Shown: one piece after another, positions 3,941 to 53,670 of the stretch
Layout of the letters: every line of letters starts with the position of its first letter
Numbering within the stretch: the stretch's first letter is position 1
Source: Octopus vulgaris
Lineage: Eukaryota
Assembly (NCBI GenBank): GCA_951406725.2
Contig: OX597820.1
Location: forward strand, 111,104,001-111,168,000
Reading direction: 5' to 3'
Length of the DNA stretch: 64,000 bases
The notes under the pieces: generated by a model
The model's database searches: none
What the model was told of the DNA's origin: nothing
What the model saw: the letters and a program-made list of their open reading frames with translations, nothing else
Position numbers and translations under genes: made by a program

Positions 3941-4890
3941 ATGCTTTGCAGACGACAATTTCATATGGGATCGAAGAAATGGAAGAAATTATGTTATATT
4001 TTCTTCATAAGTGAAAATAGTGTTTTTGTCATTAGAGTCTCGAAGAAGAATGGAATTAATAATTATACCTCTGACTTAAAGTCCATATTTATCACATACA
4101 GAGTCAGACTGATTCTGTTTGAAAGTTACGTAAAAGGTACACGCAACTATGTCAATGATTCAATGAACAGATAGACAAATTGACCGTATAATTGATCATT
4201 CATCGTTGAAAACAACGGAGATCCATTTACAGTAATATACTGTCCGATATAATAGATATGATATTGTAAAATATAGTGAAATACGAAGCACATATCATGG
4301 CCTGTAGTGTATGCTAAGAGATGAATTCTAAGTAGGTGTTATTTATTCTTAGTAGTTTCTGATAGAAGACACTGATCTAATCTATGAAACAAAGGAAGGT
4401 GATAAATCTGTACTACCTTATTTATTTATTTTTATTGTTGGATGTGCTGTATATGAGAAATTGCGGTCGTAGTAATAGTAGTAGTCCATAATAAATAATG
4501 TTTGGTAGATAGTTGAACATATAAAATAACGTTGTTTCGTGATTGTCGATACGAAATCTTTTCTTACCTACCTGAATGGCTTAGCAAGATTGAGATATTA
4601 AAATAGCATTCACCGACGCAATGTTCAACTCATTTTTTATTCAATTCAATAATATTTTGTGTTGCTTATTATATATACTTTAAGTCAGAGTATATTTGTT
4701 TTAATTCACTACTGCTATCTTAAACTTAAATCAAACTTGCACGAGATTATAGAAAAACGGACTCAAAAATGTGATATTACTTCCATTCTTCTTCGAGATT
4801 CTAATGACAAAAATAAAATTTTCACTTCTGAAGAAAACAGAACAATTTCTTCTATTTCTTCGATTCCATACGAAACTGTCGTCTGAAAAC
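3941..4890. repeat. Diverged inverted repeat pair (about 3941-4062 and 4770-4890) with decayed hammerhead-like motif
   Basis: Arms are reverse complements by eye. Right arm reads ttttca-CTTCTGA...GAAAC-TGTC-GTC-tgaaaa at 4819-4889. Confidence 0.6.
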
Positions 4891-5651: not shown

Positions 5652-5985
5652 TATAATTTAAGACAATCAGTAAGTTATTATTATAGTACTCGGAGTTCCG
5701 AATGTCGGAGCGAAGAACTGCGATGCATTCTCGTCGGCTAAACCGTTGAATAACAGGGAAGTTATTCTAAAAGGTAGGGAAAAGAAAAAAGAAAAATAGA
5801 TAAAAGATAAAAAATACACGCAACCATATTCTCACAATACATAGACATTAAATCTCATGCGTTCATAACGTCTACATACGTACACACTCACACAAACATG
5901 TATATGTACATGCACATACACACATATCCACACACATATACACAAAGGTATCTGCATGCATACATTCACTCCCTCATATACGTAT
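5652..5985 (-). mobile_element. PLE-like terminal repeat fragment with degenerate hammerhead (inverted partner at 7150-7630)
   Basis: Minus strand 5740-5684: tag-CCGACGA-GAATG...CATTC-GGAA-CTCCGAG-TA-cta. Region is the reverse complement of 7150-7630. Confidence 0.65.
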
Positions 5986-6010
5986 GTACATATATACATA
6001 TACATACACA

Positions 6011-6108
<98 letters not shown>

Positions 6109-6109
<1 letters not shown>

Positions 6110-6899
6110 TAGCAGCATAGCCCGGCGTTGGCCGGGTATGTAAGAGCCCCTAGTAGGCAACGACTAATCCCAATCTAGTCCTTTCCCTATAGGGAACGAA
6201 GGCGCATGTGTAGGTTGCAATGTCTTCTCTTCACTCCCAAATAACTATCAAACAGCTATCGATAATTCAACCCAACCAATTCCTACCAGGAAGAAATTAC
6301 ATTCGAGACTTTACCCCCAACACCGCCACTTCTGCTAATAGCTGCTGCAGCCGCAAGTTATTCGAATACTTTTTTTGTTTACACTTTCTTTATAACTACC
6401 ACCCCAAACGTTTTACCTTAAATTTTTGACGTACCCTAAGGGTCCTCGGACGCTACTTGAAAACTCTTGGTTTATTGTAAACCGCTTTTGTCGTGTGCAT
6501 CAAAAAACCTTTTACATTCGTTTGTTCAGTTTGGTTACTTTTGACTTTTTCGTTGTTGTCATTCACATTGCTGCCCGCTTTTTTGCCGTTTTTGTACATT
6601 TTTATACATTTTGGGATACTTACCCCACGTATTCCAAGAGTTACAAAGGTCGAGTTGCGTCCCCTAGACAGTCTGTAGAAAATGTGTTGCATATAAAAAG
6701 CTTAGATTCTCGACCCATATCGAATTTATCGATTTTTTTTTCAGAACTGGGGGAACTTTTCAAAATTTTCGCTGCGTTAGTTTTGAATTATGACATTGGG
6801 CTACGTGTGTGTCAAGTTTCATCAGAATCGGTTGAAAGCCGTGGTCAGGGTGAGGGTACAACCTGACAGACACACAGACACACAGACAGACAAACTGCC

Positions 6900-6905
<6 letters not shown>
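6109..6905 (-). mobile_element. Non-autonomous Helitron-like element
   Basis: Minus-strand 3' end has GC hairpin CCCGGCCAACGCCGGG (6121-6136) about 10 nt before terminal CTAG (6109-6112). The 5' part has a (GTCT)n tract. Inserted in (TA)n; same 3' architecture as 50455-50839. Confidence 0.75.
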
Positions 6906-6956
<51 letters not shown>

Positions 6957-7149
6957 TTTATATACGTATATATACACATATATATACATATATGTCCTCC
7001 TATCACACACCTACACCTGCACATATACAAACATGCATATCCGTACAAATGAAGGGGACTTCTGCATGAAAGTCACACTTATGCACCGGACAGTCTTACA
7101 CTCATATACATACATATACGCATACATATATATACATATGTATAAATGT

Positions 7150-7213
7150 CTAAATATGTATGTATGCATGCAGACACCTCTGTGTATATGAGGATGAAGT
7201 TGAGTGCACATAT

Positions 7214-7277
<64 letters not shown>

Positions 7278-7630
7278 GTGTGTATATGTGTGTTGATATG
7301 TGTGAACGTATGAGTACGTACATGCACATATATGTTTGTGTGTGTATGTGCATGTACAATACACATTTGTGTGAGTGTGTAGGTATGTAAACGTTATGAA
7401 CGCAGGAGGTTTTATGTCTATGTATTGTGAGAATATGGATGCGTGTATTTTTATCTTTTATCTATTTTTTTCTTTTTTCCTACCTATTAGAGTAACTTCC
7501 ATTTTATTCAACGGTTTTTCATAGCCTCTATTATCATTAATAACCGACGAGAATGTATCATAGCTCTTCGCTCCGACATTCCATACTCCGAGTACTATAA
7601 TGACAACTTACTGATTGTCCTGAATTATAT
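7150..7630 (+). mobile_element. PLE-like terminal repeat fragment, second copy
   Basis: Reverse complement of 5652-5985; more decayed hammerhead relic at 7541-7598 (CCGACGA-GAATG..CATTC-CATAC-TCCGA-GTA-cta). Confidence 0.6.
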
Positions 7631-31930: not shown

Positions 31931-32069
31931 ATAGTCTTTGTTGTATCGGTCTCTTTTGCCGAACCGCTAAGTTACGGGGACGTAAACACATCAGCATCGG
32001 TTGTCAAGCGATGTTGGGGGGACAAACACAGACACACAAACAGACACACACAAACAGACACACACACAC

Positions 32070-32115
<46 letters not shown>

Positions 32116-32278
32116 GACGGGCTTCTTTCAGTTTCCGTATACCAAATCCACTCACAAGGCTTTGGTCGGCCCGAGGCTATAGTAGAAGACACTTGCCCAA
32201 GGTGCCACGCAGTGGGACTGAACCCGGAACTATGTGGTTCGTAAGCAAGCTACTTACCACACAGCCACTCCTACTCCT
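31930..32278 (-). mobile_element. SINE family C copy
   Basis: Reverse complement of family C head, core and part of tail. Confidence 0.85.
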
Positions 32279-32285
32279 ATATATA

Positions 32286-32321
<36 letters not shown>

Positions 32322-32344
32322 TGTATGTATGTATGTATTATGTA

Positions 32345-32582
32345 TGTATGTGTGTGTATATGTTTGTGTGTCTGTGTTTGTCTCCTCAACATCACTTGAC
32401 AACCGATACTGGTGTGGTTACGTCCCCATAACTTACCGGTTCGGCAAAAAAGACCGATAGAATAAGTACTAGGCTTACAAAGAATAAGTCCTGGAGTCGA
32501 TTTGTTTCGACTAAAGGCGGTGCTCCAGTATGGCCGCAGTCAAATGACTGAAACAAGTAAAAGAGTAAAGGAATAAAAGAAT
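32345..32582 (+). mobile_element. SINE family C, 3' half
   Basis: CTTGACAACCGATACTGG...GGCCGCAGTCAAATGACTGAAACAAGTAAAAGAG; inverted relative to 31930-32278. Confidence 0.85.
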
Positions 32583-50454: not shown

Positions 50455-50462
<8 letters not shown>

Positions 50463-50839
50463 ACAAAAGTGAAGTTGTGTGTCTGTCTCCTACGATTTAG
50501 ATTCCTAACTACTCCCACATTTTGCGTTGCAGTTTAACCAAAACCGGGTATCTTATACTCGTGATTCATATCGAGCCCTTCTGGGTATTAGCGCGCGTCT
50601 ACGATGAGTCTACGATTTTAAAAAAAAATTTACCATCATTTTTTCCATTTTAATGCATTTTTTCGCTATTATATAAGGGAAGTAACTCTCTAAAAATGTC
50701 GACGATGAGTCAACGATTTTTAAGAAAATTTACCATAATATTTTTTCCATTTTTAATGCATTTTTTGGCTATAACTCTCTAAAAATGCTTTATAGTTATT
50801 TCCCTTACAAACCCGAGCAACGCCGGGCGATACTGCTAG
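50455..50839 (+). mobile_element. Non-autonomous Helitron-like element
   Basis: 3' hairpin CCCGAGCAACGCCGGG then CTAG (50836-50839) followed by T; 5' GTGTCTGTCT tract; internal ~100-bp tandem; in (TA)n. Confidence 0.75.
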
Positions 50840-50861
50840 TATATATATATATATATATATA

Positions 50862-51384
50862 TAATTGAGTAGTTGAATGAATTATCTTATTATGGATAAT
50901 TCGGTTAACCGATACCTGGGTAGCAAATTCACGTCAGAAAGCACAGTTGAAGCTACATGCCTAGGGCAGAGATCACGTGCTATCGTGTGGAAATTTTTGT
51001 GTTTTTTTAAATACAAATAAATGAAAGAATGGAGTTGAACGACGAAATTGGCGGGGTTCCTCTATTTTATTTTCGACATATGTTTCGAAGGCTGCATATT
51101 CCTGGTTTCGAGGGAGTGGGGGGTGCATTGTGCCACCTTCTCATCATTTTTGATGTCACTGCTTATAACAGCTATGGGCTCCGTGTGAGCAGTCATCTAA
51201 AAGTTTTTTTTGTGCATCTTGATGCTGACATAAGTTCCTTACTTTTCCTGATGAGAAGGCGGCATAGTGCACCCCTTGTTCCTTCGAAGTTGGGAGTGTG
51301 CAGCCTTCGAAGCATGTGTCGGGGGTGAAATGGAGGAATTTTGTTAGTTTCGTCGTTCAGCTCCATTCTTTCATTTATTTGTAT
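50862..51384 (+). mobile_element. Hammerhead-bearing fold-back insert with a 136-bp G.U-rich hairpin
   Basis: Arms 51011-51146 and 51249-51384 pair without gaps. Combined hammerhead consensus ttttc-CTGATGA-GAAGGC..GCCTTC-GAAA-CATATG-TC-gaaaa. (TA)n on both sides. Confidence 0.85.
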
Positions 51385-51394
51385 ATATATATAT

Positions 51395-51513
51395 AGGCGC
51401 AGGAGTAGCTTGTTTACCAACCACATGGTTCCGGGTTCAGTCCCACTGCGTGGCACCTTGGGCAAGTGTCTTCTACTATAGCCTCAGGCCGACCAAAGCC
51501 TTGCGAGTGGATT

Positions 51514-51544
<31 letters not shown>

Positions 51545-51770
51545 ATGTGTTTGTGTGTCTGTGTTTGTCCCCCTAGCATTGCTTGACAACCGATGCTGGT
51601 GTGTTTATGTCCCCGTTACTTAGCGGTTCGGCAAAAGAGACCGATAGAGTAAGTACTGGGCTTACAAAACAATAAGTCCCGGGGTCGAGTTGCTCTATTA
51701 AAGGCGGTGCTCCAGCATGGCCGCAGTCAAATGACTGAAACAAGTAAAAGAGTAAAAGAGAGTAAGAGTA
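51395..51770 (+). mobile_element. SINE family C copy
   Basis: GGCACCTTGGGCAAGTGTCTT core and full tail. Confidence 0.85.
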
Positions 51771-52009
51771 TGTAATTATGTTCTTACGTCTATTACAATT
51801 TGTGTAATTTGTTTTTATTTGTACGATTATTATTTATTCTCCATTACACGTGTTTCATTTCCTAATAGGAGTTACAAATTAGTACATATGGTAGAAAACA
51901 TACAAGATATCTGCCAGTGGAAATTCTTCAAACAGACAATAGCATAATTCTATTATTTAATTTTTTATCTGATAAATTTTTAATAGATGTCTTCTACTAC
52001 ATTTTAAAT

Positions 52010-52220
52010 TTTTTATTGTATTACTTGTTTCAGTCACTTGACTGCAGCCATGCTGGAGTACCGCTTTTTAGTCGAACATATCTATCCCGGGACTTTTTTT
52101 AAAAGCCTAGTACTTATTCTGTCAGTCTCTTTTATCGAACTGCTAGTATACATGAACGTAAGCACGCCAACACAGCTTGTCAAGCGGTGATGGGGGAACA
52201 AACACAGACACAAAGACGCA
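52010..52220 (-). mobile_element. SINE family C, 3' half
   Basis: Reverse complement of the family C tail. Confidence 0.75.
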
Positions 52221-52500: not shown

Positions 52501-53670
52501 TATATCAAATGTGAGGATAAAATTCTTTTCGAAAAAAAAATATTTTCTCGAAAAAAATTTTATCAATGGCCAACATATTAAAAAATACCTTTAACGGTTA
52601 AATTTATAAACAATTCATAAATGAGGGCAAAGGAAAAAAATTCTAATGCCAAATATGCCGAAAAATTGGACATATTGTCCATTAACCATATAATTTTTTC
52701 ACAATACGCACGCTACTCGAAAAAAGGTCGACAGAAATTCCTAAAAAATTCCATTATTACCATATCGGACCGATTTCAGAGTTAGCTACTAAGAGCCCTC
52801 TCTTCGTCAGTGATACATGTGGCAAAATAGATAAATGAGATACTTACTCATACCCATGGAAGAAGCAAATACTTCATGGGGTACTTAGTTGTGCCCATGA
52901 CTTACTATTTGCTTCTTCCATGGGTATGAGTAAGTATCTCATTTATTTCTTTTGCCACATGTATCACTGACGAAGAGAGGGCTCTTAGTCGCTAACTCTG
53001 AAAATTGGTCCGATATGGTAATAATGGAATTTTTTAGAAATTTCTGTCGACCTTTTTTCGAGTAGCGTGCGTATTGTGAAAAAATTATATGGTTAATGGA
53101 CAATATGTCCAATTTTTCGGCATATTTGGCATTAGAATTTTTTCCTTTGCCCTCATTTATGAATTGTTTATAAATTTAACCGTTAAAGGTATTTTTTAAT
53201 ATGCTGGCCATTGATAAAAATTTTTTCGAGAAAATATATATTTTTCGAAAAGAATTTTATCCTCACATTTGATATAAATTTAAGCGTTCACTTCCGAACT
53301 AACTAACTCACTCTGTGAGAGCCTCAGTTCAAATCGCACGTGCCTCGAATGGGCTGGAGTATTTCTATTTTGGATGTATTTGGGGTACTTAGTTGTGCCC
53401 ATGACTTAGTATTTGCTTCTTCCATGGGTATGAGTAAGTATCTCATTTATTTCTTTTGCCACATGTATCACTGACGAAGAGAGGGCTCTTAGTAGCTAAC
53501 TCTGAAATCGGTCCGATATGGTAATAATGGAATTTTTTAGAAATTTCTGTCGACCTTTTTTCGAGTAGCGTGCGTATTGTGAAAAAATTATATGGTTAAT
53601 GGACAATATGTCCAATTTTTCGGCATATTTGGCATTAGAATTTTTTTCCTTTGCCCTCATTTATGAATTG

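Follow-up and report, generated by a model that had tools for sequence, protein, structure and literature searches.

Results

A hairpin rich in G.U pairs inside a composite of repeats

The window, that is the whole stretch of 64,000 nucleotides analysed here, sits on contig C7 of the 2.8-Gb Octopus vulgaris genome, which has about 30 chromosome-scale contigs. The locus under study is a composite of three repeats (Table 1): a non-autonomous element that we take to be Helitron-like from its terminal features, a fold-back formed by inverted ends of a Penelope-like element (PLE), and a SINE.

Table 1 Features of the composite; positions are those of the window.
Feature	Position	Strand	Comment
Candidate 6-nt target-site duplication, left	50456..50461	+	End of a (CA)n(TA)n tract; low complexity, weak
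Copied unit: Helitron-like remnant, PLE fold-back and SINE	50462..51768	+	Putative 5'-transduced retrocopy, 1.3 kb
Non-autonomous Helitron-like element	50462..50839	+	3' hairpin and CTAG end kept; 5' TC end missing, present in two other copies
(TA)n tract into which the PLE originally inserted	50841..50861	.	Also at C30
Unpaired complete PLE 3' end (extension)	50862..51010	-	1 A-to-G change among 45 A
Left stem arm	51011..51146	+	Antisense to ribozyme; 13/48 A changed to G, in patches 51050-51056 and 51104-51130
Loop	51147..51248	+	PLE 3'-UTR segment with internal deletion; 0/21 A changed
Minimal type-I hammerhead motif	51243..51325	+	Read by eye from the sequence and unedited copies
Right stem arm	51249..51384	+	16/42 A changed to G; exact match in DNA run X1
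SINE	51396..51768	+ (sense)	Deletions in common with C30; tail repeats longer than at C30; one clear A-to-G change (51649)
Candidate target-site duplication, right	51769..51774	+	Same hexamer as 50456..50461

The two arms pair over 136 positions without a gap, in 106 Watson-Crick pairs, 29 G.U wobbles and a single A.C mismatch, exactly the counts of the initial annotation. The G lies on the right arm in 16 of the wobbles and on the left arm in 13. Such an excess of G.U over A.C is improbable by chance (binomial p = 6e-8). It was also said to differ from ordinary decay, and this is borne out by a control: 79 sequences (310 kb, window included) contain 88 inverted repeats whose G.U and A.C pairs balance in sum, at 433 vs 441, and the window hairpin is the most skewed of all. 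Balance was likewise seen in the other inverted repeats of the window (52506-53670, 5656-7625, 3945-4889, 31932-32471 and 51546-52220); the one at 52611-53670 is nearly perfect, with 235 of 238 positions paired. Locus L020 showed 37 G.U against 18 A.C beside 73 other mismatches; once simple repeats were masked, this skew was absent from the top-ranked repeats.

The hairpin derives from a Penelope-like element with a hammerhead motif

Two longer family copies (L099 and L024) carry reading frames for a reverse transcriptase (RT) and a GIY-YIG/CCHH endonuclease directly upstream of the same 3' end as the hairpin, and the family is therefore Penelope-like, as first proposed. Pfam recovers both domains in the family frames, RVT_1 at E = 0.0018 and GIY-YIG at E = 0.0022, each below the curated cut-off. 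One of these copies, at L099:5499-8400, is a near-complete PLE of the hairpin family: its RT and GIY-YIG coding is broken into three pieces, the hammerhead end comes after them, and an inverted copy lies upstream. Fold-backs are ordinary in this family: we saw at least 20 others, and only the A-to-G load of the window copy is unusual. PLEs are described as leaving inverted, 5'-truncated copies, as preferring (TA)n, and as able to move other RNAs (PMC8557442, available text).

The hammerhead motif consists of CUGAUGA at 51248, stem II, a GAAA changed to GAAG at 51309-51312, a palindromic helix III and a UC site at 51319-51320. It fits the PLE motif of PMC4209133, where, in the text available, these minimal type-I hammerheads are of low activity and thought to act as dimers. 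Rfam reported no family in the window at the gathering score; in five loci it gave 79 weak matches, none of them to a hammerhead. With or without the edits, the 136-bp stem encloses the ribozyme, and G.U pairing keeps the plus-strand stem closed.

All 29 wobbles are A-to-G changes private to one copy

The wobbles were polarised with copies of the PLE family, of which 30 were fetched and 40 scored out of 3,076 candidates from a genome search. For the 13 left-arm G sites, A is the base in 28-30 of the 30 copies. At 12 of the 16 right-arm sites, A is found in 27-28 of 28 segments, and at the remaining four in all 21 segments that are undeleted there. The family base being A at all 29 sites, the A-to-G polarity on the plus strand that the initial annotation had read from the ribozyme holds throughout, and both a C-to-T origin and mixed polarity are rejected. 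So is editing of APOBEC type, in which the sense strand shows G-to-A relative to the consensus: here the consensus has A and the window copy G.

The changes are private to the window copy, and intermediates are absent among the family copies seen. Besides the 29 A-to-G changes, the 272 nt of the arms hold one other private substitution. In the family background, 73 A-to-G and 53 T-to-C changes (126 together) occur in 15,993 aligned bases from 57 segments at 33 other loci, a rate at which about 2 changes are expected in 272 nt, against the 29 seen. A pair of C at 51062 with G at 51333 is common to the relative of the composite on contig C30, described below, and is therefore older than the editing.

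Overall, 29 of the 90 stem adenosines are changed, with a marked dependence on the 5' neighbour: 10/20 after U, 17/36 after A, 1/15 after C and 1/19 after G (p = 0.005 for G). The ADAR-type 5' bias noted at the outset is thus confirmed, and no 3' neighbour preference was found among the stem edits. Depletion of 5' G without a preference for 3' G is the invertebrate hyper-editing motif given in PMC5625713, whose available text places octopus among the two heaviest hyper-editors; 29 one-strand A-to-G changes with this bias fit that motif. Spectrum, strand, position and neighbour bias together point to an ADAR as the probable editing enzyme.

The initial annotation had predicted an A-to-G excess in the paired arms only, and none in the loop or the extension. 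This is mainly so: the loop has none and the extension one, far below the stem rate (stem vs extension, p = 2e-5). The composite outside the stem is not free of A-to-G changes, though, with private ones at 50724, 50941 and 51649. Further A/G-type differences lie at 50524, 51527 and 51529, where polarity is not assignable; given these three private and three non-polarised sites, the rest of the copied RNA may have been lightly edited. The loop itself may be an imperfect unedited control, possibly replaced later or drawn from another copy: it departs from the family four times in 102 nt and has a subfamily base unlike either C30 arm, and its junction is unique in the genome and differs from the C30 loop. 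Editing is also patchy, the outer, A-rich part of the left arm (51011-51049, 39 nt) being free of it. Patches with edits tend to fall by turns on one arm and the other, perhaps through heterogeneous editing.

In DNA run X1, possibly the source sample, a 153-nt contig of depth 25.6 matches 51244-51390 with zero differences, the single-copy flank bin having a depth of 22; an exact contig at flank-like depth speaks against misassembly of the right arm. Confirmation from genomic reads thus reaches one arm: among the matches listed for X1, no long piece crosses the left arm. Runs X3, X4 and X6 contain an exact 190-nt flank piece and, among the matches listed, no long piece over the edited arms; we read neither presence nor age from these three. 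Of the runs listed as containing the sequence, none is recorded as RNA.

Consequences for the ribozyme and the wider PLE family

The edits had been thought to destroy the sense ribozyme. GAAA-to-GAAG clearly falls in its core, but CATGTG, also counted as damage, is native in a related hammerhead family (L052, L053). This second hammerhead-bearing, PLE-like family, seen at L052:1466-1587 and on the reverse strand of L053, has compensating changes in stem I; endonuclease-like remains were read by eye upstream at L052.

Targeted, edit-specific probes of the genome found no other hyper-edited copy of the PLE family of the window hairpin. L052 and L053 were rejected as such, since they belong to the different hammerhead family and the probed bases are native there; the single changes of L056, L057 and L059, and the age and divergence of L054, led us to reject these as well. 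The suggestion that editing served as host defence did not survive: the stem sequesters the ribozyme regardless, the edited RNA was integrated, and a second hyper-edited PLE copy was not found by these probes. According to the accessible part of a review (PMC12925331), the restraint of L1 by ADAR1 appears to be editing-independent.

The copied unit ends in a SINE tail

Among the loci found, the composite recurs with the same ends only on contig C30 (L004). This relative has both (TA)n tracts, the Helitron-like piece, the fold-back and the SINE with the same private deletions, and its arms are unedited; among 18 loci with the same SINE 5' variant, it alone carries the composite. Outside arms and loop, window and C30 differ at 26 positions in about 894 nt, and in the 20 kb of C30 compared, homology ends at both borders of the unit. 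The window unit lacks the Helitron-like 5' end, which C30 keeps, and has extra SINE tail repeats. The loops differ, as does the subfamily base at 51241, and a query with the window loop junction returned no exact unedited source in the assembly.

Since the (TA)n tracts, the Helitron-like piece and the SINE are also present at C30, they belong to the copied unit. The initial annotation had the PLE fold-back transcript itself reverse-transcribed into the flanking (TA)n; this reading is not supported, both (TA)n tracts and their neighbours being common to the unedited C30 locus. The unit ends in a SINE tail, and the reverse transcriptase was therefore probably that of the LINE that moves this SINE, not that of the PLE. 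The edits lie on the SINE sense strand (+), and the complete PLE 3' end on the minus strand. Helitron transposition of the whole composite was rejected, given the missing 5' TC end and the end in the SINE tail. A read-through RNA primed at the SINE tail would amount to 5' transduction, described for SVA and L1 as the copying of upstream flank when transcription has started upstream (PMC4859970, as far as available). ARAGORN found no tRNA in three SINE loci.

A second edited hairpin and its unedited source

An inverted SINE pair on contig C22 (L086) has 154 Watson-Crick pairs, 47 G.U (21 left, 26 right), 6 A.C and one other mismatch. Its spacer has one close paralogue, on contig C2 (L096 and L097), which is unedited: the hairpin at this source counts 279 Watson-Crick pairs, 6 G.U and 14 A.C. 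The 2.2-kb C22 copy (L086:610-2801) begins inside an antisense SINE that continues at C2 and ends in the (GAT)n tail of another repeat; no target-site duplication was seen.

Relative to C2, A-to-G changes affect 21/65 adenosines of the left arm at C22 and 26/54 of the right arm where the partner is kept. In a right-arm stretch whose partner survives only at C2, they affect 17/30. In total, 64/149 adenosines are changed in the arms vs 4/294 outside, and of the adenosines with a 5' G, 5/26 are edited. Edits opposite a partner that was never copied were therefore made on the source transcript before insertion; as a matter of sequence comparison, the C22 and C2 loci establish that editing preceded insertion at C22.

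Two later insertions lie in the C2 source, one Helitron-like and 1.2 kb long, the other in the terminal repeat. At L086:1066-1822, a sense SINE follows an apparent 3' fragment of what we assume to be U6 snRNA, inside a short terminal-inverted-repeat element, presumably of hAT type, with an 8-bp duplication. A tail-to-tail SINE pair on the reverse strand of L061 (1435-2126), with 19 G.U against 4 A.C spread over both arms, may be a third edited hairpin.

Hypermutated SINE copies on the sense strand only

The genome was also searched with SINE probes, each forcing three A-to-G changes on the sense strand, and with comparable antisense probes. Two sense probes found 12 and 16 loci, 27 of them distinct; this is at least 27, as the probes cover four short sites and give no genome-wide rate. 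The two antisense probes found 0 and 0 loci. At sites not forced by the probes, the 27 loci have A-to-G at 252/1,891 vs T-to-C at 27/1,858, and unselected SINE segments (98) have 85/3,806 and 88/3,520, respectively. Individually, 15 of the 27 are hypermutated at p<0.002, the other 12 not being significant. The 5' neighbour bias recurs, with 26/441 adenosines edited after G vs 91/359 after U (p = 1e-8).

These loci represent several subfamily backgrounds with differing edits; some may have descended from one edited master. Many edited copies among L060-L087 start exactly at the SINE 5' end, so that, for some of them, the edited RNA may have been a unit-length transcript that paired in trans, or may have been joined at the upstream (TA)n by microhomology. 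In the same set, the last 80 nt of the SINE are under-edited (22/530 A, vs 7-33% in other segments), which may reflect selection for an intact recognition site for the reverse transcriptase.

Discussion

A proposed route from edited RNA to DNA

We propose the following course of events. A source locus related to C30 had accumulated a PLE 3' fold-back, a SINE and a Helitron-like element within one (TA)n tract, as the common composite shows. A plus-strand read-through RNA across all three would fold its inverted PLE ends into a 136-bp duplex, in which an ADAR would deaminate about a third of the adenosines on both arms. Since the SINE tail forms the end of this RNA, the enzyme of the LINE by which the SINE moves could prime there, read inosine as G and leave a 5'-truncated, 1.3-kb copy on C7. 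Used many times in the genome, the same route would yield SINE copies hypermutated A-to-G on the sense strand only. The mutations would be a by-product of heavy editing and active retrotransposition; nothing points to a function under selection.

We consider such a SINE-tail-primed retrocopy of an ADAR-edited read-through RNA the probable origin of the window copy, because the edited strand is sense for the SINE, the unit closes with the SINE tail, the Helitron 5' end is missing, the tail has extra repeats and a candidate duplication flanks the unit. Counting against it are the absence of an exact source, the different loop and 51241 base at C30, the weak duplication in the window and the patchiness of editing. 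Flank-like read depth and 3-4% divergence from relatives suggest that the events took place in the germline. The initial annotation had conceived of a heritable path from RNA editing to DNA, and other loci back it: the 27 sense-only SINE loci and the C22/C2 pair. With an edited fold-back RNA reverse-transcribed and the same marks in other repeats, RNA editing would so have left lasting mutations in DNA.

The composite might instead have been on C7 already, unedited, and have been rewritten in place, through palindrome break repair or gene conversion from cDNA of a hyper-edited transcript. That would still carry ADAR edits into DNA, and it would account for the want of an exact source locus and for a loop that differs from C30, as breakage and repair at the apex could produce. 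We think it unlikely: at C22 the edits lie opposite a partner missing there, which in-situ editing could not achieve, the sense-only hypermutated SINEs follow the priming strand, and the ends of the window unit resemble those of a retrocopy. It is less likely still that the PLE enzyme copied its own edited fold-back RNA into (TA)n, or mobilised the composite in trans. The hairpin is PLE-derived, and inverted copies, a preference for (TA)n and the ability to move RNAs other than their own are described for PLEs (PMC8557442, in the part available), but the flanks on both sides also exist at the unedited C30 locus, the PLE 3' end is on the strand opposite to the edits, and targeted probes gave no other edited copy of this PLE family.

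Polymerase eta prefers A or T 5' of its target A (WA sites). A patch of A-to-G errors of this type, made at the level of DNA, would suit the 27 of 29 changes that have a 5' A or T; equally, an ADAR might have acted on the DNA strand of an RNA:DNA hybrid, as ADAR does in model hybrids (PMC12925331, available text). Stem WA sites are changed at 27/56, however, while 168 WA sites elsewhere in the composite are unchanged; there is almost no other type of change or indel, and the strand is tied to SINE sense. The C22 edits, for which the pairing partner exists at the source alone, largely refute a DNA-level origin, which we hold to be very improbable. We give just as little credence to a functional RNA hairpin in which G.U pairs were selected, or to an assembly or sequencing artefact. 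The closed plus-strand stem would agree with the former, and confirmation by a DNA run covers the right arm only, but the 29 changes are private to one copy without intermediates among the copies seen, the neighbour bias is enzyme-like, and an accurate contig of flank-like depth reproduces the right arm without a difference. Even taken together, these DNA-level and selection or artefact readings have only a slight chance of being right.

Returning to the tail-primed retrocopy of edited RNA, we lean towards a wider reading, in which ADAR and retrotransposition act together as a standing germline mutator and many SINE copies and transduced hairpins across the genome are fossils of hyper-edited RNAs, marked strictly on the primed strand. 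If so, these fossils would record past germline ADAR activity and its specificity, and edited copies might seed new SINE variants.

Relation to known systems

Whether A-to-I edits find their way back into inherited DNA is an old question, to which the earlier answers that we found came only from retroviral isolates and induced events in cell culture. The octopus adds a clean natural case, a second one with its unedited source, and a class of strand-specific hypermutated SINEs. It offers a simple genome-scale test, in which A-to-G clusters are counted by strand and inverted repeats are examined for an excess of G.U, and, for a lineage known for extreme editing, a record of germline ADAR activity that can be dated. 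Edited retrocopies can also mislead RNA-editing calls and estimates of repeat age. In the open literature (subscription journals lying outside its scope), we found no report of natural, recurrent, apparently inherited ADAR-edited retrocopies in an animal genome, and the available portions of PMC9599045, PMC8466645, PMC5974252 and PMC4189041 contain nothing on edited copies re-entering the genome. The chemistry has precedent in cultured human cells and retroviral proviruses; its natural, recurrent footprint in a genome appears to be new, as far as published reports were found.

The hairpin in itself is familiar. Like the PLE 3' ends of PMC4209133 and PMC8557442, in the parts available, it is a fold-back with a (TA)n target and a minimal type-I hammerhead downstream of RT and GIY-YIG, and it is ordinary for its family except for the A-to-G load. 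As in the 5' transductions of SVA and L1 (available text of PMC4859970), upstream flank was carried along; in the octopus, however, an edited hairpin lies in the carried flank, and the priming element is a SINE of an invertebrate.

A close parallel comes from cultured human cells, where 3 of 235 L1-made pseudogene insertions had A-to-G clusters confined to inverted Alus (PMC11702581, bioRxiv 2024, as far as accessible). There too, clustered A-to-G changes in inverted repeats of reverse-transcribed RNA were fixed by a non-LTR reverse transcriptase. Those events were de novo, somatic and made under induced L1, whereas the octopus copies are natural, from an invertebrate, 3-4% diverged from their relatives and recurrent, and are mostly SINEs and 5'-transduced composites. 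In inverted repeats of an avian retrovirus nearly half of the adenosines became G, and such changes are attributed to ADAR before reverse transcription (via the available text of PMC12925331); these are exogenous viruses known from single isolates, while the octopus sequences are host repeats accumulated in a genome.

The main text of PMC4866542, one of two studies of APOBEC DNA editing in LTR retrotransposons (with PMC2873906), does not contain the term ADAR at all. As described in the accessible parts of both, that process likewise leaves persistent, strand-biased hypermutation of a single type, polarised against a consensus, and APOBEC-type editing is reported absent from 19 invertebrates. 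It differs in being G-to-A, through cytidine deamination of cDNA in vertebrate LTR elements, whereas the octopus changes are A-to-G, made on RNA, duplex-dependent and found in non-LTR elements. If the wider reading is correct, such scars would be to RNA editing what those of APOBEC in LTR elements of vertebrates are to DNA editing, and they could be read from the assembly of any invertebrate.
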